A DNA stretch of 32,000 nt from Nostoc sp. PCC 7120 = FACHB-418 (GCF_000009705.1 NC_003272.1:3150001-3182000); one strand, 5' to 3'; shown: positions 3,436 to 30,900, numbered from the stretch's first letter. Notes: generated by a model not told the origin, from the sequence alone. Made by a program: numbers and translations.

Positions 3436-3466
3436 CTCACTCTGCGCTTCTGCGTCTCTGCGTGAC
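3436..3466. repeat. CTCACGCAGAGG-family repeat (CTCTGCG orientation) forming the 3' end of the 191-aa ORF
   Basis: ctcactctgcgcttctgcgtctctgcgtgac. Confidence 0.85.
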
Positions 3467-4455: not shown

Positions 4456-4464
4456 ATTTTTTTA

Positions 4465-4506
4465 ACGCAAAGGGGCGCAGAGGGAAACGCGGAGGGGCGC
4501 GGAGAG
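4465..4506. repeat. CGCAGAGG-family repeat, intergenic
   Basis: acgcaaaggggcgcagagggaaacgcggaggggcgcggagag. Confidence 0.85.
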
Positions 4507-4510
4507 AAGA

Positions 4511-6950: not shown

Positions 6951-6958
6951 GTTTTTAA

Positions 6959-7000
6959 ACGCAGAGGTACGCGGAGGTTAACGCAAAGGTGCGCGGAGGT
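6959..7000. repeat. CGCAGAGG-family repeat spanning the intergenic gap and the last codons of the hydroxylase-R gene
   Basis: acgcagaggtacgcggaggttaacgcaaaggtgcgcggaggt. Encodes ...NLRAPLR*. Confidence 0.85.
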
Positions 7001-8100
7001 TTGAGGGAGGTTTTTGGATGAGGTTTTTTTGGATGAGGTGGGAGAGGTAGGTTTGAATTAGGGTTTCGTTGATGGTTGGTGGGGGGATGAGTTGGTTTAG
7101 TATGGTTTGGGTTTTTCTGTTGTCAATTTGTAGTTTGTTGTTGGTTGGTGTTTGGTTGGTGGTTCTTTGTCTGGGTAATAGGGGAATTAGAGGATATAAG
7201 ATGTGTTCTGGGGAGTTTTGGGCTATTTGTAAGATTTGGTTGCGCCATTGATGATATGAGGTTTTCTTAATTTCAATGCCGACTTTTTTTAGTTGTTCAA
7301 ATACTATGTCTGAGGTTGTTGCTTGTGGTTGGATGATATGGAATATTTGTTGGTTGGATGTTATTTTTGATAGTTCAACAATGGCGCGACAAACATAATC
7401 TACTGGTAAGATTTCTAAGGGCATTGGTGTATCTGGAATGCTGCCTAATTGGACGTAACCTAACAGCAGTTTATAGAGGAAATCGTTTTGATTAAATACT
7501 CCTGTTTGACTGTCTCCTGATACTGCTCCTAAGCGATAAATTTTTACGGGTATTCCGCGTTTTACTGCTGTTATCGCTAGTTTTTCTGCTGCCCATTTAC
7601 TCTGAGGATAGCCACCAATAGGTATGCCATAATCATCTAAGTTAGCATCTTCTGTCACCTGGAAATTACTATTTTTATTACCTGCCAAAATACTGATTGA
7701 GGAAATTAAATGTACTGGTTTTAGTTTGCTCTGGCTGGCTAGGCGGAAAATTTCTTGAGTACCTAAAACATTCGCTGGTTTTAAGCGGCTGTAAGGTTCT
7801 GTGTGATTTACTCGCGCTCCGTTATGATAAATTACGTCTATCTGGTTGGCTAGGTTTTGAAATTTTAGTTCAGATAGTCCTAGTTTTGGTTGGGCTAGGT
7901 CGCCTACTATGGGAATAATTCTATCTGAGTATGAGCTATCCCAAATTTGGTAATCTTGTAAGGTTTTGATGATTCTTTGGGTGGCTATTTCAAGATTATT
8001 GGCTTTAATTAAACAATAAACTGATGCTGTGGTTTTGTTGAGTAGTTCTCTTAGGAGAAATGCGCCGATAAATCCGGTTGCACCTGTTAATAATAATGAG
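6978..8100 (-). other. Thioester reductase (SDR-type R) domain
   Basis: TGATGFIG nucleotide-binding motif, YCLIKA, YxxxK as YPQSK. Borders are approximate. Confidence 0.8.
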
Positions 8101-10039: not shown

Positions 10040-13000
10040 TTAAATTTCAAACTCCTCTCGTTCATCATCGCTGGTATCAGATATTACTGGAATTTCTGCC
10101 TTTAGTTGTCGTTGTAAAATTCGTTCCGCTAAACCTGCTACTGTTGGTGCATCAAACAAATCCATGACGGTAAGTTCGACTTGAAATACCTGCAAAGCTT
10201 GGGCGATTAATTGAGTGGCGATGAGAGAATGTCCCCCCAATTCAAAAAAGTCATCCTGAATACTCACCTTTTCTAACTTGAGTATCTGGGCGTATATATC
10301 GGCTAATTGCGCTTCGATATCTGTACGGGGGGCGATAAATTCAGCGTTTGCTAGGACTTGTTCGGGTGCGGGGAGTGCGTGGGTGTCTACTTTACCGTTG
10401 GGTGTCAGGGGTAAATCAGTCAGTAGCACAAACGCCGACGGAACAAGATATTCGGGTAACTTCTCTCGCATGAAAGCTCGGAGGGATTGGGGATTGGGGA
10501 TTGGGGACTGGGGATTGGGGATTGGGGATTGGGGAAATTTTTGCTCCCCTCCTTCCTCATTGGGAATGACGTAGGCGACTAAACGCTTCTCCCCTGGTTG
10601 GTCTTCGCGGACAATTACTACTCCAGCACGCACCCCAGGATGTTGACATAATAAGGTTTCCACTTCTTGCGGTTCAATGCGAAAACCGCGAATTTTGACT
10701 TGGTTATCAACCCTTCCTAAAAGTCTGATGCGACCATCAGGTAAGTAATAAGCTAAGTCACCGGTTTTATAAAGTCTGGAATCACTGTTGACTGTTGACT
10801 GTTGACTGTTGACTAAGGACACTTCTTTTCCCAGTCCCCAGTCCCCAGTCCCCAGTCCCCAGTCCCTAATAAATCTTTCGGCTGTTAAATCTGGGCGATT
10901 TAGATAACCTCGCGCTAAACCTATTCCACCAATGTAGAGTTCACCAATTACGCCGATGGGGACGGGTTGTAAATAATTATCTAATATATATAGTTGTTTG
11001 TTGGCACTGGGGCGAATGGTGGGAACTAGGGGATGACCGTTTCCACAAAGTACCATGCTGGCGTTGACTGTAACTTCCGTTGGGCCGTAAGCGTTGATAA
11101 AACGTCTTCCTTGTGACCATTTGGCGATTAATTCAGGTGATGGTGCTTCACCTCCTACTAGTACCATTCGCAAATGTGGTAAGTCTGCTGAGGGGAGTAG
11201 GGATAGGGCTGAGGGGGTGATAGTTATATGAGTAACTGCGTTGTCCCGTAGCAGTTTTAGTAAGGTTTCTCCTGGTAGTAAAGATTCTGATTTGGCTAGA
11301 CAAAGTTTTGCACCGCTTCCCAAAGCCATGATGATTTCGGGGATAGAAGCATCAAAGCTGAGTGAGAAAAATTGCAGTACACAATCACCGGGATGAACAT
11401 CACAAACTTGTATTTTATGTTGTGTGAGGTTGGTTAAGCCGATGTGGGGGATTAAAACCCCTTTTGGTTTACCAGTAGAACCGGAGGTGTAAATTAAATA
11501 AGCTAAATTTTCTGGTTTAACTTCACTTTCTGGGTTTTCTATACTGCATTGAGAAATTGTTTCCCAGTCTGTATCTAGGTAAATTATTTCGTAGCTTGAG
11601 GAAGTGGCAACTTTCAGGCTTGTTTCTGTTAGTAAAATTGGTACTTGGGAATCAGCCAACATATACCCCAGGCGTTCTGGGGGATAATTGGGGTCGAGGG
11701 GGAGATATGCACCACCAGCTTTGAGGATACCAAGTAAAGCGATGATCATTAATGGGGAACGCTCTACACATAATCCCACAATTACCTCTGGTTTCACCCC
11801 TTTTTTTTTGAGGTAATGAGCAACTTGATTACTTTTTTGATTGAGTTCTGTGTAAGTAAGAGACTGATTTTCAAAGATAATCGCTACTTCATCTGGTGTT
11901 TTTTCTACCTGCGCTGCAAATAAGTCTTGAAAGGTTAAATGGCTAGGACATTCTACTTGGGTTTGATTCCAATCAATGAGAATAGTTTGTTTTTCTTTAT
12001 CTGTCAGTAATGGTAATTCGGAAATCCGTTTTTGTGGATTCTCAACAATCGCCGTCAATACCGTTTGAAAATGTCCTACCATTCGGTTAATTGTCTCTGG
12101 TGCAAACAAATCTCGGTTATATTCAAATGCACCTACAAAACCCTCTGATGTTTCGTACATATCCAAACTTAAATCTAGTTTGGCACTTGCTTCTGTCCGA
12201 TTTAAAGGTCTGAGAGTTAACCCTGGTAATTCTAATTTTTCTGTAGGGGCATTTTCTAACCGAAATTTTACCTGAAATAGTGGATTAAAACTTAAATCTC
12301 TTTCCGGTTGCAGGACTTCTACTAATTTTTCAAAAGGTATATCTTGATGGTCGTAAGCTTGCCAAGTTGTATTTATTAGCTGCTGTAATAATTCCTGAAA
12401 ACTGGGATTATCTGCTAAATTTGTCCGCAATACTAATGTGTTGACAAAAAAGCCAATTAAAGCTTCTATTTCTCGACGATGGCGATTAGCTACGGGAGTC
12501 CCAACGAGGATATCTGTTTGTCCGGTATAGCGATGCAGGAGAATTTTATAAGCCGTGAGGAGGGTAACAAAAGGCGTGACACCTGCATTTTTTGCGAGTT
12601 TGATAATACCTTGACTCAATTGAGGAGAGAGAGAAAAAGATTCAATTGCACCCCGAAATGTCTGTACTCTTCCACGGGGGTAGTCGGTGGGTAATTGTAA
12701 TACTGGGAGGATACCGCCTAATTGTTGTCGCCAATAGTCTAGTTGAGTTTCTAAAACTTCTCCTTGTAACCATTGTCTTTGCCAAATTGCAAAATCAACA
12801 TACTGAATTGCTAACTCTGGTAAAGGGGATGGTTGATTACCACTAAAGGCAGTATAAAGGGTTGCTAATTCTTTAACTAAAATTTCCATTGACCAACCAT
12901 CAGAAACGATGTGGTGCATGGTAAATAAAACTACATTTTCATCTTTAGCTAGTTGGAGAATTTTCACCCGCAATAATACATCTGTGGCTAAATCAAAAGG

Positions 13001-13534
13001 TGTTTGTGCTTCTTTTAAAGCCAGGTGACGGACTTCTTCATCTTGTTCGAGGAGATTAAAGGCTTGTAAATCTATCACAGCCAGGGGAAGGGTGACACTC
13101 GGCTGAATATCTAAAACAGGATTTCCATCTACAGTTTTGAAGTTTGTGCGTAGTAGCTCATGACGTTGGATAATGGTATTTAGCGATCGCTCCAATAATC
13201 CAACATCCAAAATCCCCGTCAATCTGACTGCTGTCGGTAAATTATAAGTATAACTATCGGGTTGTAATTGTTCTAAAAACCACAATCTTTGTTGAGCAAA
13301 AGACAGAGGTAGGTTGCCGTTGCGTGGTGCTGGGGTAATTGCTTGTGTATAATTTGTAGATGACTTAGCTTGACGTAAAAAAGTGATGATTTCAGATTTG
13401 CGCGATCGCAATTCTCCAGTCAGTTCATCCGTCAGCACATCTTCAGGAATACTACACCGTAAATTAGCATCTTCTACCCACAATTTAACATCAAGGCTGT
13501 AAAGGTGTGCCAGAAATTTTTCAATAGTTTTCAT
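10040..13534 (-). CDS. NRPS subunit 4: N-terminal TubC-type docking domain-C(LCL)-A-T
   Basis: Docking: LYSLDVKLWVEDANLRCSIPEDVLTDELTGELRSRKSEIITFLRQ. C: LPLSFAQQRLWF, MHHIVSDGWS (Met206 codon 12917-12919). A: LAYLIYTSGSTGKPKG (~11465-11515), YKTGD, NGKVD. T: FFELGGHSL (~10215-10250). Manual specificity code DAPTLGAVNK, which I cannot assign. C-terminal tail ...SDTSDDEREEFEI. Confidence 0.95.
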   Translation of the reverse strand: MKTIEKFLAHLYSLDVKLWVEDANLRCSIPEDVLTDELTGELRSRKSEIITFLRQAKSSTNYTQAITPAPRNGNLPLSFAQQRLWFLEQLQPDSYTYNLPTAVRLTGILDVGLLERSLNTIIQRHELLRTNFKTVDGNPVLDIQPSVTLPLAVIDLQAFNLLEQDEEVRHLALKEAQTPFDLATDVLLRVKILQLAKDENVVLFTMHHIVSDGWSMEILVKELATLYTAFSGNQPSPLPELAIQYVDFAIWQRQWLQGEVLETQLDYWRQQLGGILPVLQLPTDYPRGRVQTFRGAIESFSLSPQLSQGIIKLAKNAGVTPFVTLLTAYKILLHRYTGQTDILVGTPVANRHRREIEALIGFFVNTLVLRTNLADNPSFQELLQQLINTTWQAYDHQDIPFEKLVEVLQPERDLSFNPLFQVKFRLENAPTEKLELPGLTLRPLNRTEASAKLDLSLDMYETSEGFVGAFEYNRDLFAPETINRMVGHFQTVLTAIVENPQKRISELPLLTDKEKQTILIDWNQTQVECPSHLTFQDLFAAQVEKTPDEVAIIFENQSLTYTELNQKSNQVAHYLKKKGVKPEVIVGLCVERSPLMIIALLGILKAGGAYLPLDPNYPPERLGYMLADSQVPILLTETSLKVATSSSYEIIYLDTDWETISQCSIENPESEVKPENLAYLIYTSGSTGKPKGVLIPHIGLTNLTQHKIQVCDVHPGDCVLQFFSLSFDASIPEIIMALGSGAKLCLAKSESLLPGETLLKLLRDNAVTHITITPSALSLLPSADLPHLRMVLVGGEAPSPELIAKWSQGRRFINAYGPTEVTVNASMVLCGNGHPLVPTIRPSANKQLYILDNYLQPVPIGVIGELYIGGIGLARGYLNRPDLTAERFIRDWGLGTGDWGLGKEVSLVNSQQSTVNSDSRLYKTGDLAYYLPDGRIRLLGRVDNQVKIRGFRIEPQEVETLLCQHPGVRAGVVIVREDQPGEKRLVAYVIPNEEGGEQKFPQSPIPNPQSPIPNPQSLRAFMREKLPEYLVPSAFVLLTDLPLTPNGKVDTHALPAPEQVLANAEFIAPRTDIEAQLADIYAQILKLEKVSIQDDFFELGGHSLIATQLIAQALQVFQVELTVMDLFDAPTVAGLAERILQRQLKAEIPVISDTSDDEREEFEI
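10483..10534. repeat. STRR1-variant array (ATTGGGG x6, ACTGGGG x1) in the A8-A9 loop of the NRPS4 A domain
   Basis: Counted directly. Read as PQSPIPNPQSPIPNPQS. Confidence 0.95.
10784..10814. repeat. STRR3 array (ACTGTTG)x4 in the A6-A7 loop of NRPS4
   Basis: Coding strand CAACAGT, read as NSQQSTVNS. Confidence 0.95.
10830..10866. repeat. STRR1 array (CCCAGTC)x5 in the A6-A7 loop of NRPS4
   Basis: Coding strand GGGGACT, read as DWGLGTGDWGLG. Confidence 0.95.
13370..13534 (-). other. N-terminal TubC_N-type docking domain of NRPS4
   Basis: MKTIEKFLAHLYSLDVKLWVEDANLRCSIPEDVLTDELTGELRSRKSEIITFLRQ precedes the C domain. Confidence 0.75.
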
Positions 13535-16500
13535 AGCGATATCTCCTTACGACCTGATTGTTCAGACGGGGTAGTTTGCATTTGTTGAATACTCTGTTGC
13601 AGAATCATAATTCGTTCTGCAAGTCCGGCAATTGTGGGTTTTTCAAATACACTATGTAAAGGTAAATCCAATTGAAAAGCTTCTCTGAGTCTTGATGTCA
13701 CCCGAATTGCTGAAAGGGAATTTCCCCCCAATTCAAAGAAGTTTTCATCTACTCCCATGCGTTCTAGTCGCAACACATCGGCCAAAATGTTGGCAATAAT
13801 TGTTTCTGTAGAATTACGCGGTGCAATATAAGATTGATTTGCATGGCGTACAGTTTCAGGTGTCGGTAAAGCTTGACGATTGATTTTACCGTTAGGCAAT
13901 AAAGGTAATTCTGACAACATCACAAATACAGAAGGCAACATATATTCTGGTAATTGAGATGCCAACAATTTTTCTAATTCGCTGGTGAAATCTGGCGACT
14001 CAAGGCTAGTTGATTTCTGCACCACATAAGCCCCTAAACGCTGATTATCAGCTTGTTTTGAGTCTAAAATCACCACCGCTTGCTGTACATCAGGATGTTG
14101 ATTAATTACCGCTTCAATTTCCCCTAATTCAATCCTCAACCCCCGAATTTTTACCTGATTATCCAATCGCCCCAAGTATTCTAAATTACCATCAGGCAAA
14201 TAGCGAGCAAGGTCGCCTGTTTTATAGAGAGTGCTGAGTGCTGAGTGCTGAGTGCTGAGTTGGGAGTTGAGAGTTGGGTTATTTTTTTCCCCAGTCCCCA
14301 GTCCCCAGTCCCCAGTCCCCAGTCCCCCAACAAACCTTTCCGTCGTTAAATCTGGACGTTTCCAATAACCTCTGGCGACTCCTACACCACCGATGTAAAT
14401 TTCACCTGGAATACCTAAAGGTACTGGTTGTAAATAATCATTTAAAAGGTAAATTTGGGTGTTAGTAATTGGACGACCGATAGGCACTGTATGTAAATTA
14501 TCTGTAGGCTGACATTGCCAATATGTGACATCAATTGCGGCTTCTGTCGGCCCATATAAATTGTGTAATTCTGCATCCAAATGCTGGAAGAAACGATTTT
14601 GAATTTCTATTGATAAAGCTTCACCGCTACAAATTACCCGCTTCAAGCTGTGACAACGTTCATTTAAATTTGGTGCTTCTAAAAACACTCCTAACATCGT
14701 CGGCACAAAGTGTAATGTCGTGATCTTGTGCTGTGCAATAATTTCTAATAAATAATTTGGATCTTGATGTCCTCCTGGTTTAGACATCACCAAACGACCA
14801 CCATTTAGTAATGTCCAGAAAAATTCCCACACTGAAACATCAAAACTAAAGGGAGTTTTTTGTAAAACAACTTCTCCTCTTTCTAAACCATACTGTTGCT
14901 GCATCCAATACAATCGATTACTCACACCGCGATGGGTGTTAATTACTCCCTTGGGTGTGCCTGTAGAACCAGAGGTATAGATAATATAAATTGCATCTTC
15001 ATGATTAACATTTGTGATGGGATTATTGTCAGGTTTCTGGGTGATTTCCTGCCAATCTGTATCTAAGCATAAGCACAAGGTTTTATTCAATACTTTGCTG
15101 GAGGCTTGGGAAGAGGTAAACCCTAGCAATTTTTCTAATAAACTTTCCTGAGTTAATACTACTGGGACTTGAGTTTCATTAATAATATATGTCAACCTAG
15201 ATGCAGGATAAGCAGGGTCAAGAGGAACATAACAACCTCCAGCTTTGAGGATACCTAAAATCCCAATGACCATTTCTAAAGAACGTTCAATATAAATCCC
15301 AACTGGTGTTTCTGGTTGTACTCCCCAGGTTTGCAAATAATGAGCTAATTGATTAGCACGTTGATTTAATTCTCTATAGGTAAGTTGTTGTTCCTCAAAG
15401 ACCACAGCAACATCATCGGGTGTTCTTTCTACCTGGATGTCAAATTGCTGATGAATACATTCTAGGGGATAATATGCTTCTGTTTGATTCCATTTGTGGA
15501 TGGTTTCATACTCTTGCTGAGTTAATAAAGGTAGGTTTCCTATTGTTTGCCCTGGTTGACTCATTCCTAATAACAAATTACAGAAATGCTCTAATAATTG
15601 AGTGATGGCATTATCTGTAAATCTGTTGCGGTCATATTTTACTTTTAATGACAATTGATTCCCTACAGAAACCAACATGGTTAAGGGAAAACTTGTCCAT
15701 TCTAAAGATTGAATATCAATAATACGTAAATCTTGGTTTTGGGAAATTCCCGATGTATCAACGGGATAATTTTCAAATACTAAAATACTGTCAAATAATG
15801 AAGTTCCTGGTGTAAGTTCGCTCCATTCTTGAATTTCTAAGAGTGATGTATATTCATATTCTAGAGCTTCTGCTTGTTGTGCTTGTAATTTTTGCAACCA
15901 CTCAACTAAATCATCTGTGGGTGATACCTGAACCCGCACCGGCAAAGTATTGATAAATAATCCCACCATTGACTCTACACCAGCGAGGGTTGCGGGTCGT
16001 CCTGATGAGGTTGCACCAAAGACTACATCGGTGGTGTTGCAATAGCGGCTTAATAATAAGGCAAAAGCACCCTGTAAGAGAGTATTCAGGGTTAATTGTT
16101 GCTCTTTTGCCCATTGTTGCAACCCAGTTGTTTGATTCGGGGTGAGACTGCGGGTTTGTTCTTGGGGTGTGAGGTTTTTGTTTTCTCTTTGGGCAAATCG
16201 TTGTATGACAGTGGGTGTAGTAAATCCTGCAAGTTGTTTTTGCCAGAATGTTTTAGCGGCAATTTTATCTTGTTGTTGTAACCAAGCTATGTAGTCACCG
16301 TAGGGGCGGGAATTAGGATAATAAGATGGGGAATTATAATAATTTTGAAATACTTCTTTAATTACTAATGCTGATGACCAACCATCGAGAATTAAATGAT
16401 GTTGTGTCCAGATAAGAATATATTTAGTTGCTGATAATTGAATTAGGGTTAAACGTAATAATGGAGGTTGTTTGATGTCGAAGGAGAAGGTGCGATCGCT

Positions 16501-16839
16501 CTCCAAAAAAATCTCTAATTCTACTTGCTGTTCCGCATCAGATATTGTCTGCCAATCTAAAATTTTCCAAGGTATTTCTACTTGGCGAAATACAACTTGA
16601 AAGGGTTTATCTCGCTGTTCCCAATAAAAGGCTGTGCGTAAAGCTGGATGGTTAATTACAACTTGATTCCATGCAGTTTTTAAGGCGTTTATATCTAGTT
16701 TTCCTTCCAGATACAAGCAAACCTGTGGCACATATACCCCTGCTTGGGGGGTTAGCAAGGTATGAAACAGCATTCCTTGCTGCATGGGTGATAGGGGATA
16801 GATATTTTCTATATTTTTGCGTTTATCCACAGGTTGCAT
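13531..16839 (-). CDS. NRPS subunit 3: DCL-type C-A(Ser-like)-T
   Basis: N-terminus MQPVDKRKNIENIYPLSPMQQGMLFH (DCL/COM-acceptor style). QHHLILDGWS (~16381-16410). A: AIYIIYTSGSTGTPKG (~14950-14995). Manual code DVWHISLIDK (the Ser code is DVWHLSLIDK). T: FFELGGNSL (~13711-13740). The stop overlaps the NRPS4 start (ATGA at 13534-13531). Confidence 0.95.
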   Translation of the reverse strand: MQPVDKRKNIENIYPLSPMQQGMLFHTLLTPQAGVYVPQVCLYLEGKLDINALKTAWNQVVINHPALRTAFYWEQRDKPFQVVFRQVEIPWKILDWQTISDAEQQVELEIFLESDRTFSFDIKQPPLLRLTLIQLSATKYILIWTQHHLILDGWSSALVIKEVFQNYYNSPSYYPNSRPYGDYIAWLQQQDKIAAKTFWQKQLAGFTTPTVIQRFAQRENKNLTPQEQTRSLTPNQTTGLQQWAKEQQLTLNTLLQGAFALLLSRYCNTTDVVFGATSSGRPATLAGVESMVGLFINTLPVRVQVSPTDDLVEWLQKLQAQQAEALEYEYTSLLEIQEWSELTPGTSLFDSILVFENYPVDTSGISQNQDLRIIDIQSLEWTSFPLTMLVSVGNQLSLKVKYDRNRFTDNAITQLLEHFCNLLLGMSQPGQTIGNLPLLTQQEYETIHKWNQTEAYYPLECIHQQFDIQVERTPDDVAVVFEEQQLTYRELNQRANQLAHYLQTWGVQPETPVGIYIERSLEMVIGILGILKAGGCYVPLDPAYPASRLTYIINETQVPVVLTQESLLEKLLGFTSSQASSKVLNKTLCLCLDTDWQEITQKPDNNPITNVNHEDAIYIIYTSGSTGTPKGVINTHRGVSNRLYWMQQQYGLERGEVVLQKTPFSFDVSVWEFFWTLLNGGRLVMSKPGGHQDPNYLLEIIAQHKITTLHFVPTMLGVFLEAPNLNERCHSLKRVICSGEALSIEIQNRFFQHLDAELHNLYGPTEAAIDVTYWQCQPTDNLHTVPIGRPITNTQIYLLNDYLQPVPLGIPGEIYIGGVGVARGYWKRPDLTTERFVGGLGTGDWGLGTGEKNNPTLNSQLSTQHSALSTLYKTGDLARYLPDGNLEYLGRLDNQVKIRGLRIELGEIEAVINQHPDVQQAVVILDSKQADNQRLGAYVVQKSTSLESPDFTSELEKLLASQLPEYMLPSVFVMLSELPLLPNGKINRQALPTPETVRHANQSYIAPRNSTETIIANILADVLRLERMGVDENFFELGGNSLSAIRVTSRLREAFQLDLPLHSVFEKPTIAGLAERIMILQQSIQQMQTTPSEQSGRKEISL
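13543..13548 (-). promoter_or_regulatory. Shine-Dalgarno-like AAGGAG for NRPS4, embedded in the last codons of NRPS3
   Basis: Minus strand reads GTAAGGAGATATCGCTATGA. AAGGAG ends 8 nt before the ATG at 13534, and the ATG overlaps the upstream TGA. Confidence 0.5.
14229..14277. repeat. (GAGTGCT)x4 + (GAGTTGG/A)x3 heptamer array in the A6-A7 loop of NRPS3
   Basis: Counted directly. Read as PTLNSQLSTQHSALST. Confidence 0.95.
14289..14328. repeat. STRR1 array (CCCCAGT)x5 in the A6-A7 loop of NRPS3
   Basis: Read as GGLGTGDWGLGTG. Confidence 0.95.
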
Positions 16840-16877
16840 GATTTTTGGTAATGTTGTGATGCAAGTATTTAATTAGG

Positions 16878-16952
16878 CTCACGCAGAGGCGCAGAGACAC
16901 AGAGAGTAAGAGAACTCTGCGTACCTTTGCGTTACCTCCGCGTACCTCCGCG
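16878..16952. repeat. CGCAGAGG-family units in inverted arrangement (intergenic NRPS2/NRPS3)
   Basis: ctcacgcagaggcgcagaga...ctctgcgtacctttgcgttacctccgcgtacctccgcg. The left and right halves are imperfect reverse complements. Confidence 0.85.
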
Positions 16953-16969
16953 TTTCAAAAAAACTCCTC

Positions 16970-22900: not shown

Positions 22901-24823
22901 TGAACCGGAGGTGTAAATTAGGTAGGCGAGTTGATTGGGGTGTGATAAATCATTGGTTTTGTCGGTGTTGCTGATGAGTGGGATGATTTTTATTTCACGC
23001 AGAGGCGCAGAGGCGCAGAGAGGAGTTTTAAGAGGTTTATTTAATGCTATTTCCTCTATGAGTGGGAGGTTGTTTAATAAGGAAGTTTGAGTTAATAAGA
23101 TTGAGATTTGTGAGTCGTTGATTATAAACTGTAAACGCTCTTGGGGATAGCCGGGGTCGAGGGGAACGTAAGCACCGCCGGCTTTGTGAACTGCTAATAG
23201 GGAGATTACCATTTCTAGAGAGCGATCGCAGCAAATTCCTACTCTTGTTTCTGCTTGCACTCCTATGTTTTGTAAATAGGCAGCTAGGTGATTAGCTTCT
23301 TGTTCTAGTTGCTGATACGTTAGGGATTTATTACCAAAAAGAACGGCAATTTTATCTGGTGTTTTTTCTACTTGTTGACTAAATAATTCATAAACTGTTA
23401 ATTCTGGAATATCTGTAAATGTATCGTTCCATTCTGTTAATAGATTTTGTTCTTTAACTGTTAATAATGGTACTTCATTAATAGATTGTTTGGGATTATC
23501 AACAATATTTGATAATAAAATTTGAAAATGTGCAATTAATCTTTCAATAGTAGCTTGTTCAAATAATTCTGTACTGTATTCCCAAGTTCCCCTTAAACCG
23601 TTTGGTGTTTCGTACATATCCAAGCTGATATCAAAGCGAGATGTAGAATGTTCGGTTTCTAGAGGTTCAATTTTTAATCCAGGTAAATTTGTCGTTTTAT
23701 TCGGTGTGTTATGGAGAACAAACATTACCTGGAATAAAGGATTTTGACTTAAATTTCGTTCTGGTTGCAGTTGTTCTACTAAATCTTCAAAGGGTAAATC
23801 TTGGTGAGATAACGCGCCTAAAACTGTTTCTTTTACTTGGTTAAGAAGTTCGATAAAACTGGGTTTACCAGATAAATTGGTGCGAAATATGAGATTATTA
23901 ACAAATAGACCAATGAGGTTAGCAATTTCTGGGCGATCGCGGCTAGTAACTGTAGAACCAACTAATATATCATCCTGTCCACTGTAGCGATATAATAAGA
24001 TATTAAATGCTGTTAAAAGAGTCATGAACAGCGTAGCATTATACTGTTGACTCAATTGTCGCAATTGCTCAGATAATTCTGGTGATAAAGTAAAAAATAG
24101 CCTTGCACCTTTAAAAGTTTGTATAGCGTTACGTGGATAATCTGTTGGTAAAGATAATTCACGGGGATAATTTTTTAGTTGTTCTTGCCAGTATAATAAT
24201 TGATTTTGTCTAGCTTCACTTTGCAGCCATTTTTGTTGCCAAGTTGCAAAATCTGCAAATTGAATTGGTAATTTTGCTAAGGTTTGACCTTGATAAAGTG
24301 AGATTAATTCCCGCACCAAAACACGAAATGACCAGTAATCTGTAATGATGTGGTGCATGACCAAAATCAATACAAATTCAGTATCACTCAGTTGTAGTAA
24401 CGCCACACGTAATAAAGGCGGTTCTGTAAGTTGAAACGGTTGCTCTGTGAGTAATTTAGCTTGCTGTATGACTTGTGATTCTTGATTTTCTGGTGATAAT
24501 TCCCGCAAATCAATTATAGGTAGATTTATTTTGACGTTTACAGCAATATTCTGTACAGGTTCATCATTAATTACAGCAAAACTGGTGCGTAAAATCTCAT
24601 GACGCAACAAAATTGATTGTAAACTTTGCTCTAGGCGCGTGACATCGAGATTACCCGTCAACCTTAAAGCCGCAGGTACGTTATAAACTGATAATCCTGG
24701 CTGTAATTTATCTAGAAACCACAATCTTTTTTGAGCAAAAGAAAGCGGAAAATGTTGTTTGGTGGCTTTTTGTTGTAGTAGTTTCGCTAATAGTTCGCGT
24801 TTTTGGGATGTGGAAATATTCAT
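16970..24823 (-). CDS. NRPS subunit 2: C-A(Gly)-T-C-A(Ala-like)-T-E
   Basis: C1 MHHIITDYWS (~24331-24360). A1 LAYLIYTSGSTGTPKG with manual code DILQLGLIWK (canonical Gly). T1 FFDLGGHSL (~21741-21770). C2 LHHIIADAWS (~21170-21200). A2 LAYIIYTSGTTGIPKG with code DLFNNALTYK. T2 FFRLGGDSI (~18611-18640, the GGDSI type that precedes E domains). E: PLTPIQQWFF, FHHLIIDGISW (~17945-17980). C-terminal ...FSQDELDKLLGEL (COM-donor style). Confidence 0.95.
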   Translation of the reverse strand: MNISTSQKRELLAKLLQQKATKQHFPLSFAQKRLWFLDKLQPGLSVYNVPAALRLTGNLDVTRLEQSLQSILLRHEILRTSFAVINDEPVQNIAVNVKINLPIIDLRELSPENQESQVIQQAKLLTEQPFQLTEPPLLRVALLQLSDTEFVLILVMHHIITDYWSFRVLVRELISLYQGQTLAKLPIQFADFATWQQKWLQSEARQNQLLYWQEQLKNYPRELSLPTDYPRNAIQTFKGARLFFTLSPELSEQLRQLSQQYNATLFMTLLTAFNILLYRYSGQDDILVGSTVTSRDRPEIANLIGLFVNNLIFRTNLSGKPSFIELLNQVKETVLGALSHQDLPFEDLVEQLQPERNLSQNPLFQVMFVLHNTPNKTTNLPGLKIEPLETEHSTSRFDISLDMYETPNGLRGTWEYSTELFEQATIERLIAHFQILLSNIVDNPKQSINEVPLLTVKEQNLLTEWNDTFTDIPELTVYELFSQQVEKTPDKIAVLFGNKSLTYQQLEQEANHLAAYLQNIGVQAETRVGICCDRSLEMVISLLAVHKAGGAYVPLDPGYPQERLQFIINDSQISILLTQTSLLNNLPLIEEIALNKPLKTPLCASAPLREIKIIPLISNTDKTNDLSHPNQLAYLIYTSGSTGTPKGVQILHRSLSNFLTAMSKAPGLTAEDNLLAVTTLAFDIAALEIFLPLIVGACLVLVEREVTLDGERLAQAIAQHQITFMQATPATWRLLLASGWEGKQDLKILCGGEALDNTLAQQLLSCTQEVWNLYGPTETTIWSAAQKLSIDEPVTIGHPIANTQFYVLDEHLQPVPIGVPGELYIGGAGVAKGYWQRPDLTAERFLNQQSTVNSQQSTVNTLYKTGDRVRYLPDGKLEYLGRLDYQVKIRGFRIELGEIEAVLAQHPQISQAVVSVQEDEPGEQRLVAYIVPNSQDVGSNDLQQFLANKLPKYMIPGVFVTLTALPLTPNGKVDRKALPTPNTQSQVNETPRTPTEEVLASIWAMVLGVESVGIEDNFFDLGGHSLLATRLISQVRQVFGVELPLRNLFESPKIADLARVIEHSHHEINPILPIARTGNLPLSFAQQRFWILAQLEPDSPFYNIPLAVQIRGDIHLDSLQRSFTEVVRRQEILRSHFLNVDGQPVLRIADVCDVNIPVIDLQGLPEFEQQQQVQELARTQAQQPFDLAGLLWRVRLVKLGEGNQVLLLTLHHIIADAWSVGLLVREISRAFAERPAGKAQRRREEERIQYVDFAFWQREWLRGRVLEEHLEYWRGQLESAPVMLELPTDYPRPAVQSFRGAVYGFGLSAELTQGLQGLSRRYHSTLFMTLLAVWNVLLYRYSGDDDIVVGSPIANRNRVETEGLIGCFANTLALRTDLSANPSFADLLSRVRATALGAYAHQDLPFEQLVDVLQPVRSLSHSPLFQVMLVLQNLPLPELDMGGIEWQVIEADSGTAKFDLTWFVSETAQGLSCKLEYNTDLFAATTIERLAGHLETLLQAVVLNPEQHINELPLLTTVEQQQLAQWNATQRQYPQQCLHELFEAQVRQTPEKIAVIWGEKQLTYQELNTKANQLACHLQSLGVQPETPVGICVDRSLDMIIGLLAILKADGAYVPLDPTYPEARLAFIIEDSQMQVLLTQQKQLTKLPQLQIPIISLDTPIPSPQSPVPSPQSPTNLAYIIYTSGTTGIPKGVAITHQSPVTLMYWAREIYTRAELTGVLASTSICFDLSIFEIFVPLSWGGCVILADNALQLPELPAAAQVTLINTVPSAARELLRLNGIAATVQTVNLAGEPLPKSLVDELYQQSTIERVYNLYGPSEDTTYSTHALIPRNSQQAPTIGQPIANTQVYILDQNLQPVPVGIPGEIYLSGAGLARGYWKRPKLTDERFIKQSTVNSQQSTVNTLYKTGDRARYLPDGNIEYLGRFDHQVKLRGFRIELGEIEALLHQHPELTQAVAIVRNDTPEHSRLVAYVVPKSHIEAAELRQFLAAKLPAYMLPTAFVILETLPLTANGKVDRFALPIPDLSPVTTTTAPRTPIEQQLINIWTQVLGVESISIHDNFFRLGGDSILAIQAVAKANQQGLALRPRQMFQYQTVAELAAIVDTDTTLSSEQTPITGEVPLTPIQQWFFEQNLVDAHHWNQAILLEVHQSLNPDYLRQALDQLLAHHDGLRSHFQQTPDGWRQFVADINQLHNTQKPNPQPLLYKGRGEIKASLPLGERLGEGFYYFDMSELTNLHPEKVSDTIANIANDLQASFNLETPPLLRLAYFDCGETQNHRLLLIFHHLIIDGISWRVFLEDLQLAYQQLSQGQQIQLPPKTTSYQQWANKLQEHTWSADLQAAFNYWTSPTWQQIPPLPVDYAPGSNTMADVDTYSTFLSVTDTQNLLQEVPHAYRTQINDVLLTALVLAFQTWTGENRLLVELEGHGREDLFPSINLSRTMGWFTSLFPVLLDIYPSADLGISLKAIKEQLRQIPDRGISYGLLRYLASPTIRDTIKAIPLPQVRFNYLGQSDQIFSENSLFTPASESIGHSRSSRGKRNTLIEINSIVTGGKLRCDWTYSKQLHHRQTIATLAENYQQILLSLIQHCLTPEVSGFTPSDFPQMDFSQDELDKLLGEL
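17000..18480 (-). other. Epimerisation (E) domain
   Basis: PLTPIQQWFF and HHLIIDGISW, preceded by a GGDSI carrier and followed by a DCL-type C domain in the next subunit. Confidence 0.85.
18150..18236. repeat. Double-hairpin MITE-like element, inverted relative to the 27189/29031 copies, inside the E domain
   Basis: cctctccaagcctctcccccagagggagagaggctttgatttctccccttcccttgtagagaaggggttgggggttaggtttc. Read as KPNPQPLLYKGRGEIKASLPLGERLGEG. Confidence 0.85.
19115..19152. repeat. STRR3 array (GTTGACT)x5 in the A6-A7 loop of NRPS2-A2
   Basis: Read as KQSTVNSQQSTVN. Confidence 0.95.
19801..19848. repeat. STRR1 array (GGGGACT/GGGGATT, ~6.5 units) just upstream of the A3 motif of NRPS2-A2
   Basis: Coding strand CCCCAGT, read as PIPSPQSPVPSPQSP. 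Confidence 0.95.
21085..21139. repeat. CTCTGCG/CTTTGCG-family repeat inside the second C domain of NRPS2
   Basis: cctcctctctgcgtctttgcgccttccctgcgggacgctccgcgaatgcgcg, read as FAERPAGKAQRRREEE. Confidence 0.75.
22244..22285. repeat. STRR3 array (GTTGACT x5, GTTGATT x1) in the A6-A7 loop of NRPS2-A1
   Basis: Read as NQQSTVNSQQSTVN. Confidence 0.95.
22995..23025. repeat. CTCACGCAGAGG-family repeat upstream of the A3 motif of NRPS2-A1
   Basis: tcacgcagaggcgcagaggcgcagagaggag, read as PLCASAPLRE. Confidence 0.85.
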
Positions 24824-24852
24824 AATTTAATCAAGTAAAATAATATTTTTTC

Positions 24853-24957
24853 CTCACGCAGAGGCGCAGAGGCGCAAAGAGGAGAAAAGAGAGATAGTTT
24901 GATTAGAAAATTATCTCCTCTCCTCCTATTCTTCGCGTCTTTGCGTCTTTGCGTGAG
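24853..24957. repeat. CTCACGCAGAGG-family units in inverted arrangement spanning the NRPS1 stop and the NRPS1/NRPS2 intergenic gap
   Basis: ctcacgcagaggcgcagaggcgcaaagaggag ... ctcctctcctcctattcttcgcgtctttgcgtctttgcgtgag. The right arm encodes ...LSHAKTQRREE*. Confidence 0.85.
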
Positions 24958-27900
24958 ATAAATCATCCTCTTCTAACTGCATTTTTTGAAGTAAAATCTC
25001 TACTTCTTCATCAGAAAGTTCATCTAAATTTGCCAGTAATTCTTGTGGATTAATACGTTCAATAGGTTCAATTGTAATTTCTTGTTTTGCTTCCCACTGT
25101 TGTTTGAGTAACTCAGCTTGTGCAGTTAAGGTAGGATTGAGAAAAAATTCCCGAATGGGTAAATCAAGTTGGAGATTTTGCCGCATCTGAGTAATTATTT
25201 GAGTAGCTGATAATGAATTACCTCCCAATTCAAAAAAATTATTGTGAATGCTAGAAACTTCTACATTTAAAATAGATTGCCATAGTTGAGCTAGTGCTAT
25301 TTCTAATTCTGTAGAGGGAGGTATAATAGGCTGTTCAGATTGGCTAAATTGATATTCTGGCTGAGGTAACGCACGACGGTCAATTTTGCCATTTGGTGTT
25401 AATGGCAGCGTTTCTAGGGGAATATAGAGGCGGGGAATCATATATTCTGGCAATCTTTGTTGCAGGAATTGCCGTAGTTTTTGGGTAATTAATTCGGCTT
25501 TTGTTACCTTGGTTTGAGCAGTTTCAGGTGATAACCAACGGGTTGTCCAATGGGGGTCTATAATACCGCCTACAAACCCATGTAAGAATATTTGCTGCTC
25601 ATGTAAAATGAAATGTTCGCGGATCGCATCAAATTCTAAATCCCCAATGGGACACAAGCCTAAATTTTGATTTGGTGCGGTTTCCATTAATAGTTGACCC
25701 ATATAACCCGCTTCTAGTAAACAGAAGTCCCTAGATTTATCACCATAAACTGGCGAAATTGCTTGTAAGTCACCAATTAAAAAGATGGCAAATGCTGCTT
25801 GTGTAAAAATCTCTTGATTGATGCCATAGATACTACTATCAATGTTTGTCTCATCACTTAACTGGATAAGTTGATGTTTTTGGGGATGATAGTAATAAAA
25901 ACCAGCCGCTAAATTTTCAACTCGATGGGGTTTTATATAGATATATGTTTGGACTGGATATAAACTACCAGCCGAAGCATAGCGATATTTTGGTAATGGG
26001 GAATTTTCTAAATGTTGCATTTGCAAACACTCGAAAAATTCACCCAAGGCATTTAGAGGGATAGTTTCTGCTAAAAACTGTCTGTAACTTTGTCGCCGCA
26101 AATTGACTTGAGAAGATTTAACCCCAGGTAAAGCTACAGAATGCACCCCAGCATCAAATTTTCTGACTCCCTTTTGTTGCAATTTGAAATCCAGTTGTGA
26201 GGAGGAGTTAAGAGTGTTTTGACTAGCAATTACTTCTGGTTGCAATACCAGATAAGCAACTAATTGCTGTTGAGATAGTGCATTTCCCGCAGTTGTCACC
26301 ACAGCTTGAGTTATGGCTGGATGTTGTTGTAAAGCGGCTTCAATTTCTCCTAATTCAATTCGATAGCCATTAATTTTGACTTGAAAATCCTCCCGTCCCA
26401 AAAATTCTATTGTTCCATCAGATAAGTAGCGTCCTAAGTCGCCAGTTTTATATAGGGGTGTAGGGGTGTAGGGGTGTAGGGGTGTAGGGGGGAAATTCTC
26501 TCCCATGTCCAATTGAATAAATTTTTCCGCCGTTAATTCTGGATTTTGCCAATATCCTTTGGCGACTCCTAAACCACTGATGTAGATTTCGCCAATAGCC
26601 CAGGTGGGACAGGGTTCTAGGGAGTGGTTGAGGACGTAAACTTGTTGATTAGTCAATGAATAACCGTAGGGAATACTTTTCCAATTGGGGTCGATTGTCT
26701 CTATGGGGTAGAAAATTGACCAGATGGAAGCTTCTGTAGCACCGCCTAAGCTAATAATTTGGGGATGATTAAATTGGCTGCGGATGCGTGGGGGTAATGT
26801 GAGAGGAATCCAGTCACCACTGAGTAAAATTAGGCGGAGTGTCTGGTTTTGGGTGGGGGAGGTGTCAAGTAAAAGCTGCATCAGGGCGGGAACTGTGTTC
26901 CATATTGTCACCTGATGTTGGTTAATTAACTGCATCCAATGGGTGGGATCATTACCGCTTTTAGGAATGATGATTGTTCCGCCAGCCGCTAAAATGCCAA
27001 AGATGTCATACACGGATAAATCAAAACTAAGGGATGACACCGCTAAAACTCGGTCATTCTCTGTTACACCAAAGCGTTGATTAATATCTAATATTGTGTT
27101 GACTGCTCCCTGATGATCAATCATCACACCTTTGGGTGTTCCTGTTGAGCCAGAGGTGTAAATTACATAGGCTAAATCTGTGGGTTGACCTAACCCCCCA
27201 GCCCCCTTCCCTACAAGGGAAGGGGGAGAGTTTAAGATTGGTTCTACATCCGAAGAATCAGAGGGAGAGGTTAAAGCCTCTCTCCTTGTAGGAGAGAGGT
27301 TTGGAGAGAGGTCAACACATATCCGAGTTAGATGATCAGCCCATTCTAAAGTTGTATCTAACCAAGATTGGGTAAGTATAATTTGTGCTTGTGTTTCTTG
27401 TAATAGATGTAGACGACGCTGGGCTGGTAATTGCGGGTCAATGGGTACGTAGGCAGCACCAGCAGTTAGAATTGCTAAGGCTGCTACTATTTGTTCCCAA
27501 CCTTTATCCATGACAATTGCTACTAATTGGTTGGGAATTACACTTAATTGTTGTAAATGTTCGGCAAGATGACAGACGCGATCGCTCACCTGTTGATAGG
27601 TTAAAGTTTGTTCTGTGGTGACGATTGCGGTTTGGTTGGGTTGTTTTGCTACTTGCTGGAAAAATAGGGTTTGGAGGCAGGAGGCAGGGGGGCAGGGGGC
27701 AGGGGGCAGGGGGATGTGATTGGTATCGGGTTCTACTAACTGGTTGAGGAAATTACAGTAGGTGCGGAACATTTCATCTAACATTCCTGGGGGGAAAAGT
27801 TCATCAATGGTGTCCCAGTTAAATACTAATGCGCCGGCAACTTCTCCTACTTGATGGTCAAAATACACTTGGGAGGTTTGGCTGAGGCTGTATATTAATT

Positions 27901-30900
27901 CACCTTGCCAATTGCGGTTATCTTCTGGTTGTTGATAATCTTGGGTGAGGGTACTGGTAAAAACTACAGGCATTAATGCTTCTGTTACCCGTTGTTGCTG
28001 ACGCGCTAGTTGACGCAGTACCTCTACACCACTGAAATAACGATGGTCTAAATCATCCCACAGTTGGCTTTGGATGCGGTGAGCTAGTTCGAGGAAGTTA
28101 TTACACCCTGCACTCTTCATTTCTAGCAGCAGAGACGCTGTGAAGTCTCCGACAATTTGATTGACTTCGGGATGTAGGGGTAGACGGTTAAATAAGGTCA
28201 GATTTAGGGTGAAATTGGGTTGTTTGCTCCACCGTGAGAGAATTTTGGCAAAAGCAGCCAAAAGTATGCCGGATGGTGTAATTCCTGCTTCGCTGGCTTG
28301 CTGTTTGAGTTTTTGCCATTGGGTTGGGGATAAAGTTCCACTGCGACGGGTGAAATGCGGTTCTGTAATTTTACTGAGGGGTTTAGTTAAAGGTAATTCT
28401 GGTGCAGGAGGCAGGGTAGTCAGGCGATTTTGCCAGTAGGCTTGAGAACGGTGATAAATCGCTGAGTCTTGTAATGTTTTTTCTGTGAGGACGTAATCTC
28501 GGAAAGTTAAGTTAATGGGTGGTAACTCGACCTCTGGATTTTCCATAATTTGGACTAATTCTCTCCCTAATAAGCGAAAACTCCAAGCATCGCCGATTAA
28601 AACATCAAAGCTGATGCAGAAGCGGGTTTTGTTGTCATTTAATAAAATTGCTTGAATTTCAAATAAAGGATAGCTGTCAGTGGGGCGAACTTGATGAGAA
28701 AGGCGTTGGCGGATATCCTGGAGTGCAGAAGCTACCCCACGCAAATCTGTCACCGCAATTTTGAAATCCGGTACTTGTGATAAAACCTTTTGCTGTCCAT
28801 CAGCTTGGACAATCACCCGCAGCATATCATGACGCTCAATCAATCGCTGCATCGCCATTTCTACCTGTGCAACACTTAACCCCACCGTCTCAATTTCTTG
28901 ATAACCATGAGTAGCAATGTTACCCAACTCAAAAGCGGCGTTACGTCCGATGAGGTAAGCTTGCTGAATATCTGTCAGGGGAAAAGGTTGATAGCGTTCC
29001 TGGGGTTGGGGTTGAATTTTGGGTAGTCCGAAACCTAACCCCCTAACCCCCTTCCCTACAAGGGAAGGGGGGAATGTCAAAGCCTCTCTCCTCGTAGGAG
29101 AGAGGTCAATCTGTGCGGCTAAACTGGCAATGGTGGGAAACTGAAATAAATACTTTAGGGGTAATTCTACCTGCAAGGATTCGTTAATTCTCGCTACTAA
29201 CTGCATCCCCAGAAGTGAATGTCCGCCCAATGTAAAAAAGTTATCATAAATGCCGATAGGCTCAACTAAAAGTATTTCTCGCCAAATCACCTCTAAAGCT
29301 TGCTCTGTAGCTGTGCGAGGTGCTACATAACCAATTCCTAATTCTGAAGATAAATTTTCAACTGCGGGTAATGCCTTACGGTCAATCTTACCATTGGGAT
29401 TACGTGGCAGTGCATCCAAAGTCATGAAATGAGCAGGAATCATGTATCCAGGTAATTTATCTGTCAAATAATGCCGTAAATCTGCAATATTGATATTTTT
29501 AGGAGCAATATAAGCAACTAAATTTTTATCACCTGATGATGTTTCACTAGCAATCACGACAGATTCTTGAATTTCTGGATACTGACTGAGTAAAGCGTCT
29601 ATCTCGCCTAATTCAATGCGATAACCACGTATTTTTACTTGATTATCTAACCTACCTAAGTATTCAATATTGCCATCAGGCAGATAACGAACGCGATCGC
29701 CTGTTTTATATAAAGTGTTGACTGTTGATTGTTGACTGTTGACTGTTGACTGTTGATTAATAAACCTTTCTGCTGTTAATTCTGGGCGTTGCCAATATCC
29801 TCTGGCGACTCCTGCACCTGCAATGTATAATTCTCCTGGAACACCAACGGGTACTGGTTGTAAATGTTTGTCTAAAATATAAACTTGAGTATTGGCGATC
29901 GCACGACCAATAGGAGGAGTAGGACTATTTGGGGTAATATCTTTCAGTTCTATGTAAGTAGAATAAGTAGTATCTTCCGAAGGGCCATAAAGATTATAGA
30001 TGTGCTGAACATGGGGGAGTTGTTGAAGTTGCTGTACTAATTTCCATGTCAGAGGTTCACCCGCTAAATTCACTGTGTTCACAGAATGAGGAATAGCATT
30101 AAAGTTGAGAAGTTGAGTTATCGCACTTGGTACAGTATTAATTAACGTCACCTCATATTTAGCAGGTAAATTCGGCAATTCCAGAGCATTTTCTGCCAAA
30201 ATTACCTTACCCCCCCAACAAAGCGGGACAAAAATCTCAAACACCGATAAATCAAAACAAATAGAAGTAGCCGCCAACACCCCAGAAATCGCCTCATCAC
30301 AAAAAACCTCACGCGCCCAGTACAATAAACAAACTGGACTGCGATGCTCAATCATCACCCCTTTAGGCTTACCCGTAGAACCCGAAGTATAAATCAAATA
30401 AGCCAAATTCCCCGGCGTAACATCCGTCACAGGATTAGTAACAGGATATTCCCCAACACTCTCCCAATCTCCTAAATCAACAACCTTCTTTTCTTCCTTT
30501 GCGTCTTTGCGCCTTTGCGTGAGCATTACCTCCACTTTCGCATCATCCAAAATATACTGTAATCTCTCATCAGGATAAGCCGGATCGAGCGGAACATAAA
30601 AACCCCCAGCCTTGAGAATAGCTAACATCCCAATCACCATTTCCGGGGAACGTTCCAGACAAATTCCCACAGGCGTTTCTGGCTTAACTCCCAAAGTTTG
30701 TAAATAATAAGCCAGTTGATTAGCCTTAATATTAATTTCTCGATAAGTAAAAGCTTCCTCACCAAAAATCAAAGCAATTGCATCAGGAGTTCTTTCTACC
30801 TGCGCTGCAAATAATTCATGAATACACTCATGAGTAGGATATTCCCGTGATGTCGCATTCCAATTATTTAATAATTCTGCTTCCTGAGCAGTTAATAAAG

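Follow-up and report, generated by a model that had tools for sequence, protein, structure and literature searches.

The 32,000-nucleotide window analyzed here corresponds to positions 3,150,001 to 3,182,000 of the Nostoc/Anabaena sp. PCC 7120 chromosome and carries the genes all2641 to all2645, as placed by the coordinates of a published repeat table, with exact protein matches to BAB74340 to BAB74344 of the same organism. All large open reading frames (ORFs) of the window are located on the minus strand, and four of them encode nonribosomal peptide synthetases (NRPSs) composed of condensation-adenylation-thiolation (C-A-T) modules, with six A domains in total according to Pfam. Short tandem repeats occupy one loop of each of these A domains, between core motifs A6 and A7, and these arrays are the subject of the present analysis. 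The genes are arranged as follows.

6978-10037, minus strand: all2641 (published repeat-table coordinates).
10040..13534, minus strand: all2642, NRPS, TubC_N dock-C-A-T (ORFs, Pfam, protein matches, published table).
13531..16839, minus strand: all2643, NRPS, C-A-T (ORFs, Pfam, protein matches, published table).
16970..24823, minus strand: all2644, NRPS of 2617 residues, two modules (ORFs, Pfam, protein matches, published table).
24926..32000, minus strand, continuing past the window end: all2645, NRPS, C-A-T-C-A(Ox)-T (Pfam, published table).

The annotated all2645 protein is 2459 residues long and starts at about window position 32305, the frame being open to 32000; the ORF list begins this gene at a GTG at 31729, inside the open frame that reaches position 32000. 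A nitroreductase-type oxidase is inserted within the second A domain of all2645 (Pfam). The A domains of the window NRPSs match the Pfam AMP-binding family with E-values of 1e-83 to 1e-184, core motifs A3, A5, A6, A7, A8, and A10 were found in order with regular expressions, and the LgrA, McyA, and PheA structures match. Downstream of the NRPS genes, Pfam identifies a CmlA-like hydroxylase fused to a reductase, a methyltransferase, and an aminotransferase. Passages of one report (PMC4005646, citing Jeanjean 2008) describe the all2641 to all2649 cluster as FurA-regulated and ascribe it to siderophore biosynthesis.

Tandem arrays were called with Tandem Repeats Finder (TRF), and loop peptides were obtained by translating the minus-strand ORFs. 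In all six A domains, in-frame tandem repeats were found between ..ERF(I/L/V) and LYKTGD (motif A7). TRF and translation thereby bear out a first-pass annotation of the window, which had reported repeats at this one site in six of six A domains and had given a position and a peptide for each loop: TRF places the arrays there and translation yields the same peptides. The loop arrays are listed below.

29716..29756, minus strand: (CAACAGT)5.9, forming the whole A6-A7 loop (NQQSTVNSQQSTVNT) of all2645 A domain 1 (TRF, translation).
26453..26490, minus strand: (CCCCTACA)4.8, an octamer array (PPTPLHPYTPTPL) in the A6-A7 loop of all2645 A domain 2 (TRF, Pfam).
22243..22283, minus strand: (CAACAGT)5.9, A6-A7 loop of all2644 A domain 1 (TRF).
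19114..19152, minus strand: (CAACAGT)5.6, A6-A7 loop of all2644 A domain 2 (TRF).
14229..14327, minus strand: whole A6-A7 loop of all2643, comprising (GGGGACT)5.7, a spacer, and then a CTCAGCA-type array.
14288-14327, minus strand: (GGGGACT)5.7, 5′ half of the all2643 loop (TRF).
14229-14278, minus strand: CTCAGCA-type array, 4.6 copies, 3′ half of the all2643 loop (TRF).
10784..10866, minus strand: whole A6-A7 loop of all2642, comprising two arrays.
10830-10866, minus strand: (GGGGACT)5.3, 5′ half of the all2642 loop (TRF).
10784-10814, minus strand: (CAACAGT)4.4, 3′ half of the all2642 loop (TRF).

According to TRF, seven of the eight loop arrays have a period of 7, with 4.4 to 5.9 copies and 94 to 100% matches, and the remaining one, in all2645 A domain 2, is made not of heptamers but of the octamer CCCCTACA. 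Two of the heptamers, CCCCAGT and CAACAGT, are reportedly the elements named STRR1 and STRR3 (Mazel 1990). None of the six loops keeps the NPF segment, in agreement with what the annotation had noted, and the GrsA/PheA sequence that it had used for comparison, containing VDNPFVPGEK, agrees with that of 1AMU (residues 373-452). Four loops contain CAACAGT, namely those of all2645 A domain 1 (all2645-A1, the other domains being designated likewise), all2644-A1, and all2644-A2 and the 3′ half of the all2642 loop. Three consecutive CAACAGT units with at most one mismatch occur 12 times in the window, all in the sense orientation and all within these four loops, against 0.00 expected from 100 shuffles, and chance is therefore excluded. 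By direct reading, the six loops are plain tandem repeats with no hairpin or target-site duplication, no inverted-repeat scan having been run on them.

An assembly artifact, which the annotation had named as one way in which its observation could fail, was considered as the source of the arrays and ruled out. The all2641, all2642, and all2644 proteins are identical across records of independent origin (BAB, BAY, MBD, and HBW accessions), all2643 differs between such records at a single residue outside the loop (T792A), and GCA_014696775.1 matches the window at the DNA level with 99.996% identity, one mismatch, and no gaps. Because these independent assemblies agree in both protein and DNA, the arrays are not artifacts.

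To place the loop on a structure, as the annotation had proposed, an alignment with LgrA was combined with an AlphaFold2 prediction for the all2642 A domain, for which 94 aligned sequences served as input (mean predicted local distance difference test score [pLDDT] of 87). The LgrA alignment (HMMER) breaks off at ERFI and restarts at DSRLYKTGD, leaving about 5 residues in LgrA versus 28 in all2642. In the model, residues 363-391 are coil lying between strands 360-362 and 392-402, and the 10-residue block means of pLDDT are 45 to 46 over residues 371-390. The array is thus predicted by the model to be a disordered hairpin tip on an otherwise confident A-domain fold.

A genome-contig scan with all2643 yielded 80 NRPS loci, giving with the window 81 sources and 1.13 Mb of NRPS ORF, in all of which short-period arrays were mapped relative to the A-domain core motifs. 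In Nostocales, the A6-A7 interval represents 1.85% of NRPS ORF bases and holds 14 of the 35 in-ORF arrays (binomial P = 9e-16), corresponding to a density of 1.74 arrays per kb compared to about 0.05 per kb elsewhere in NRPS ORFs; with the window left out, 6 of 21 Nostocales arrays still fall in this interval (P = 2e-6). The arrays are therefore not scattered at random in the NRPS coding DNA surveyed, which was the other way in which the annotation's observation might have failed. The remaining in-ORF arrays fall in the A2-A3, A8-A9/A8-T, and A10-T intervals and in interdomain linkers. Across the 81 sources, all non-cyanobacterial arrays in A-domain intervals came from filamentous Chloroflexota, and no such arrays were found in the survey in the other bacterial loci sampled, which include many from Pseudomonas and also Acidobacteriota. 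The A6-A7 interval itself spans 19 to 26 residues (standard deviation, 1.2) in 77 A domains of other bacteria, and its 90th percentile reaches 40 to 51 residues in cyanobacteria and Chloroflexota. Since arrays and long loops lie in cyanobacteria and Chloroflexota and the interval is nearly invariant in the other bacteria, loop expansion is tied to repeat-making genomes and its position to the protein.

The Chloroflexota parallel is clearest in an uncultured Anaerolineales locus (L066), where TRF detects arrays in seven of seven A6-A7 loops (A7 positions 832-22894), and similar cases are found at loci L050, L025, and L008. Each A6-A7 loop of L066 contains two octamer arrays, of the GAGACAAG and TCTCCCCA types, and heptamers are found in its A2-A3 intervals. 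Array occupancy is 100% in the PCC 7120 cluster and its ortholog clusters and is near all-or-none per cluster. A search for homologs with one A domain returned mostly proteins of 52 to 56% identity with normal 24-residue loops, 8 of 108 loops being listed as expanded or repeat-like.

The annotation had also suggested aligning the loops with those of orthologs. A Trichormus metagenome-assembled genome (MAG), GCA_050633005.1 (L084, L085), is colinear with the window and 93% identical to it over 31.6 kb; arrays are present in every A6-A7 loop visible in it, with units that are mostly other than those of PCC 7120.

MAG all2645-A1 loop: (TGGGGCA)5..(CCCAATG)4.
MAG all2644 loops, both: (GGGGACT)..(CCCAATG)4.
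MAG all2643 loop: GGGGACT plus (CCCCTACA)4.
MAG all2642 loop: retained NPF, then (ATTACGA)3.

The only loop unit left unchanged between PCC 7120 and the MAG is CCCCTACA in all2645-A2. An unbiased scan of the alignment identified about 30 divergent blocks in 32 kb, among them all six loops, and the other in-gene blocks mostly correspond to the remaining arrays and to hairpin elements. The tallied in-ORF length differences to the MAG (+36, +3, +114, +66, +3, and +6) are all multiples of 3. One all2644 block, at 21086-21135, measures 50 nucleotides (nt) in PCC 7120 against 197 nt in its MAG counterpart (+147 nt, with the frame kept), the MAG copy containing an additional hairpin element and octamer repeats. 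In Nodularia chucula (81% identical) and Trichormus M33 (84% identical), loop content is unrelated to that of the window between flanks that are more than 90% identical: the loops hold an octamer array, hairpin elements, or remnants, and Nodularia all2642 still has SNPF. The all2644-A2 loop of Trichormus M33 (L002, 3360-3520) consists of a CAACAGT remnant (NQQST) and an insert of about 30 residues, with the end ..LTISTL; no tandem or inverted repeat was detectable in this insert. Arrays are exchanged in intergenic DNA as well, where the MAG carries an array of another unit at the same site for both 1931-1997 (CAAAATT versus AGCAGGGG) and 1460-1502 (AATTACG versus CCCAGTC). Whole-array switching is therefore not peculiar to coding loops.

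The replacements do not look independent from one module to the next. The three loops sharing CAACAGT in PCC 7120 (all2645-A1, all2644-A1, and all2644-A2) are precisely those with CCCAATG as a common unit in the MAG, and within this trio the 5′ and 3′ junction registers are identical. Flanks of the three loops are 69 to 82% identical, with many synonymous differences, a level that rules out recent long-tract conversion or module duplication behind the trio. In the MAG, positions at which a domain departs from its ortholog but matches a paralog are concentrated shortly before the loop. Among the loops of six L066 modules, identity averages 82.5%, versus 60% in the 636 nt upstream and 65% in the 450 nt downstream. 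In the PCC 7120/MAG trio, paralogous loops resemble each other more within a genome than orthologous loops do between genomes, and in L066 the loops of different modules are more alike than the flanks. As judged by sequence comparison, this pattern indicates concerted evolution through putative short-tract gene conversion of loop cassettes between modules, and we infer that conversion, rather than parallel insertion, accounts for the sharing of units.

A simpler account would dispense with exchange, each loop having gained its array on its own, through local slippage or insertion, with selection as the sole reason for the common position. It would accommodate the four different units distributed across six loops, the limited flank identity of the unit-sharing loops, the arrays present in other permissive segments, and the unrelated units found in the same loop of other Nostoc, Floridaenema, and Chloroflexota NRPSs. 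It sits poorly, however, with three loops that have a common unit in the same 5′ and 3′ junction register, with the joint switch of this trio to CCCAATG in the MAG, with paralog-like substitutions concentrated beside the loops, with L066 loops that are more alike than their flanks, and with the near all-or-none occupancy of clusters, and we regard it as unlikely.

A HIP1 palindrome (GCGATCGC) was observed just downstream of the loop in exactly the three co-evolving domains, in both PCC 7120 and the MAG, and is absent at the corresponding place in the other three A domains.

About 29690-29705: HIP1 GCGATCGC, codons TGDR after the all2645-A1 loop.
About 22217-22232: HIP1 GCGATCGC, codons TGDR after the all2644-A1 loop.
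About 19088-19103: HIP1 GCGATCGC, codons TGDR after the all2644-A2 loop.

These sites raise the question of targeted installation, in which an active process, either a site-specific or template-directed enzyme or HIP1-promoted recombination, would deposit whole arrays at acceptor sites. Besides the position of HIP1, such a process would fit the wholly different units held by 93%-identical strains at 29712-29760, 22239-22289, and 19109-19157 and at the intergenic sites 1931-1997 and 1460-1502, as well as the fact that arrays lie within one codon of the ERF(I/L) codons in every loop. Yet direct reading of the loops, which were not subjected to an inverted-repeat scan, revealed neither terminal inverted repeats nor duplicated targets, and the window showed no associated enzyme. 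Moreover, this loop accepts hairpins resembling miniature inverted-repeat transposable elements (MITEs) as well as octamers and is hit in Chloroflexota by unrelated units, both of which speak for a feature of the protein rather than of the target DNA. Of the three origins put forward in the first-pass annotation, a tolerance filter and gene conversion between modules are retained here as acting together, while targeted insertion, for which no positive evidence was obtained, is considered very unlikely.

Six further arrays lie inside the ORFs of the window, in segments that the survey likewise marks as permissive.

10483..10535, minus strand: (CCCCAAT/CCCCAGT)7.6 (PQSPIPN repeats), all2642 A-domain C-terminal subdomain, between A8 and LPEYLVP (TRF).
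19802..19848, minus strand: (CCCCAGT/CCCCAAT)6.7, A2-A3 loop of all2644 A domain 2 (TRF).
22998..23020, minus strand: (CTCTGCGC)2.9, an octamer array in the A2-A3 loop of all2644 A domain 1, where the MAG has (CCCCTACA)n (TRF).
30497..30520, minus strand: (ACGCAAAG)3, an octamer array in the A2-A3 loop of all2645 A domain 1 (TRF).
27676..27713, minus strand: (CCCCCTG)5.3, linker between a condensation-type domain and A domain 2 of all2645 (TRF).
29034-29052, minus strand: interdomain-linker array of all2645 (in-ORF array list).

Together with the eight loop arrays, these six are inside the all2642 to all2645 ORFs and not in the intergenic location usual for the short tandemly repeated repetitive (STRR) sequences of heterocystous cyanobacteria. 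All twelve in-ORF units are stop-free in the sense orientation; four of the twelve (CAACAGT, CTCAGCA, CCCCTACA, and ATTACGA) would hold stops in antisense and occur only in sense. The 10483-10535 array, which lies past motif A8 and directly ahead of the LPEYLVP motif, is also low-confidence coil in the AlphaFold2 model, and it is 35 nt shorter in the Trichormus MAG, offset by +8 nt close by.

Elements of other kinds are inserted in the same genes. Double-hairpin (MITE-like) elements were observed in frame at two places: at 29047-29105, where the element follows the first T domain in all2645 (peptide ..PPSLVGKGVRGLG..), and at 18158-18220, where it follows the second T domain in all2644 (..PQPLLYKGRGEIKASLPLGERLGEG..). 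Relative to the 93%-identical MAG, the window has 102 nt more in the all2644 block around the latter element (18066-18278). Elements of this double-hairpin type fill A6-A7 loops in Aliinostoc (L049, 7619-7692) and Nodularia (L001, 9287-9353). Octamer and 22-mer repeats of the CGCAGAGG / ACGCAAAGG family are present at or beside almost every gene junction of the cluster (3440-3463, 4464-4508, 6958-7001, 16881-16954, 24857-24891, and 24930-24954), and octamers of this junction family are also present in A2-A3 loops and in the A6-A7 loops of Nodularia all2644-A1 and MAG all2647.

Since the loop arrays lie inside ORFs and their units are not divisible by 3, gain or loss of one unit alters the frame. 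Sequences L083 and L082, one of them a 174-kb metagenome contig and the other a further assembly of the strain, differ in 27,854 nt by a single feature, one GGGGACT unit missing from the all2643 loop on the contig, and this minus-one allele, which splits all2643 into 883 and 222 residues, fits what slippage would probably produce. An all2645 fragment from NIES-23 (P0139, AP018216.1) was examined as a second frameshift and discarded, as a 139-N scaffold gap falls precisely on the CCCCCTG array in the corresponding DNA (L086, 2769-2907, equivalent to window 27683-27713). The truncated protein P0140, from re-sequenced PCC 7120, starts where P0139 does. Contigs of Nodularia spumigena (P0019 to P0022) end exactly at the start of the all2644-A1 loop. 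Because a gap sits on the CCCCCTG array and the N. spumigena contigs stop at a loop, the arrays can be said to damage assemblies.

The frameshift allele bears on whether the arrays have a selected function, be it as a flexible spacer, as an mRNA G-quadruplex (G4) formed by GGGGACT that imposes a translational pause where the large and small A subdomains meet, or as a 7-nt contingency switch. In addition to this one-unit variant, the persistence of some array in every loop across at least three lineages despite turnover could speak for a function, and the GGGGA(C/T)T repeats of PCC 7120 form G4 in vitro according to the passages of PMC4692102 on that subject. Against it, unit, peptide, and length (15- to 54-residue insert) are all unconserved; CAACAGT and CCCCTACA are incapable of forming G4; arrays are missing from most A domains of cyanobacteria and from every one sampled in other bacteria; and the frameshift variant is single and comes from an assembly, not from reads. 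No evidence for a selected function was obtained, and we consider one very unlikely.

Several known systems resemble the arrays in part. In the passages of PMC2670836 that cite Mazel et al. 1990, STRR heptamers are described and used as intergenic elements of heterocystous cyanobacteria. The window arrays are alike in having tandem 7-nt CCCCAGT/GGGGACT and CAACAGT units, in belonging to the same organism group, and in their many dispersed copies, but differ in that they sit within genes, in frame, and occupy a single fixed site in the structure of a protein fold. A subset is already known: Rehm et al. 2015 (PMC4692102) report 89 GGGGA(C/T)T arrays in PCC 7120, the intragenic ones being presented in the relevant passages as under-represented exceptions, and their table lists 3160830-3160866, 3164289-3164328, 3160483-3160534, and 3169803-3169867 as intragenic in all2642, all2643, and all2644, so that these arrays stand tabulated as intragenic G-rich repeats. 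From that table we counted 25 of the 89 arrays as truly intragenic, 7 of these 25 being in all2642 to all2648; combining its coordinates with the MAG contig, arrays #49 and #50 would lie in the A6-A7 loops of both all2648 A domains. The passages of PMC4692102 consulted make no mention of 7 of 25 falling in one NRPS/polyketide synthase cluster or of A-domain loops, and the paper leaves out the CAACAGT and octamer arrays that are present in the window loops. The literature searched contains no description of repeats in the A6-A7 loop, nor of a fixed position in the A fold, rapid concerted replacement of units, or a Chloroflexota parallel.

The contingency loci of Haemophilus and Neisseria carry repeats near the 5′ end of surface or restriction genes and have high measured switching rates. 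The window arrays share with them a unit that is not a multiple of 3 within an ORF, where a change of one unit shifts the frame (one putative variant), but are located mid-gene with 4 to 6 units and are known here from sequence, not from switching rates. In mcy NRPS clusters, recombination and A-domain replacement concern whole domains or specificity regions (PMC2174460, PMC2564945). Exchange between paralogous A domains of one cluster is the shared feature, whereas the tracts proposed here would measure tens of bases and involve a noncatalytic loop. Small dispersed repeats or MITE-like hairpins are reportedly nested in heptamer arrays (Elhai et al. 2008, Genome Res 18:1484); such hairpins occupy the same loop in Aliinostoc L049 and Nodularia L001, and the six window loop arrays are without them. 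Interrupted A domains contain a folded catalytic methyltransferase or oxidase inserted between A8 and A9 and likewise show that the fold tolerates large loop inserts, all2645 A domain 2 having one such insert (an oxidase), but there the inserts are folded and at a different site, whereas the window arrays are predicted to be disordered low-complexity sequence.

Taken together, we consider it likely that the arrays are STRR-type microsatellites overwriting a permissive A6-A7 hairpin loop, through the combination of a repeat supply, a tolerance filter, and short-tract conversion. The supply would come from Nostocales and some filamentous Chloroflexota genomes, which would constantly create, expand, contract, and replace arrays in intergenic and genic DNA. 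An array would survive in an NRPS gene if its sense unit is stop-free in every frame, if the net length is a multiple of 3, and if it falls in a disordered surface segment; the A6-A7 loop would be by far the most permissive such segment, followed by the A2-A3 interval, the A8-to-T interval, and the interdomain linkers. The loop is bracketed by the domain's most conserved DNA (..ACAGCAGAAAGRTTT.. and ..TAYAAAACAGGCGA..), so that short-tract conversion could copy loop cassettes between modules of one cluster, which would lead to full occupancy and to the sharing of units within a genome. Repeated expansion and deletion would have eroded the ancestral NPF up to the first residues that matter, the arrays being read through as a predicted low-complexity peptide, and a one-unit (7-nt) change frameshifting the synthetase would be a by-product. 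Because the repeats turn over very quickly and appear to be copied between modules, the A6-A7 loop is interpreted as a tolerated dumping ground for repeats, not as a new molecular machine, and we infer that the arrays are selectively neutral passengers.

Several observations weigh against this interpretation. In the other Nostocales NRPSs sampled, 86 A domains include only 7 loops with exact arrays (6 under the TRF criterion), and given such low occupancy compared to 100% here, a purely neutral model leans heavily on conversion. With flanks of 69 to 82% identity, any conversion tracts must in turn be very short, and the clustering of paralog-like sites of the MAG in the last 25 to 50 nt before the loop (6 of 8 and 5 of 8) is a count over a small number of sites, not a formal test. 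The wholesale replacement of units, which is seen also in intergenic DNA, is more than slippage by itself can account for, and the minus-one all2643 allele is a single case from a metagenome assembly and could be an error. A bolder proposal would make the arrays STRR cassettes that are actively installed or swapped, by a template-directed or HIP1-associated process, at acceptor sites including the A6-A7 loop, where they would serve as 7-nt on/off switches of siderophore synthetase genes; we think this improbable.

For NRPSs, the A6-A7 hairpin tip emerges as a naturally validated insertion-tolerant site, useful for tagging or engineering, and the A2-A3 interval and the C-terminal-subdomain loop upstream of motif A9 are candidates of lesser strength; in two phyla these sites hold inserts that range from 5 to more than 50 residues. 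Two practical warnings also follow, namely that the arrays break short-read assemblies and give false partial genes and that slippage of one unit can silently inactivate a biosynthetic gene in a laboratory strain. Finally, the origin and dynamics of STRR sequences have been a standing question since 1990, and the cluster and its 93%-identical ortholog provide paired loci in which the arrays have been exchanged and the flanks have barely changed, so that the replacement process may be studied directly.

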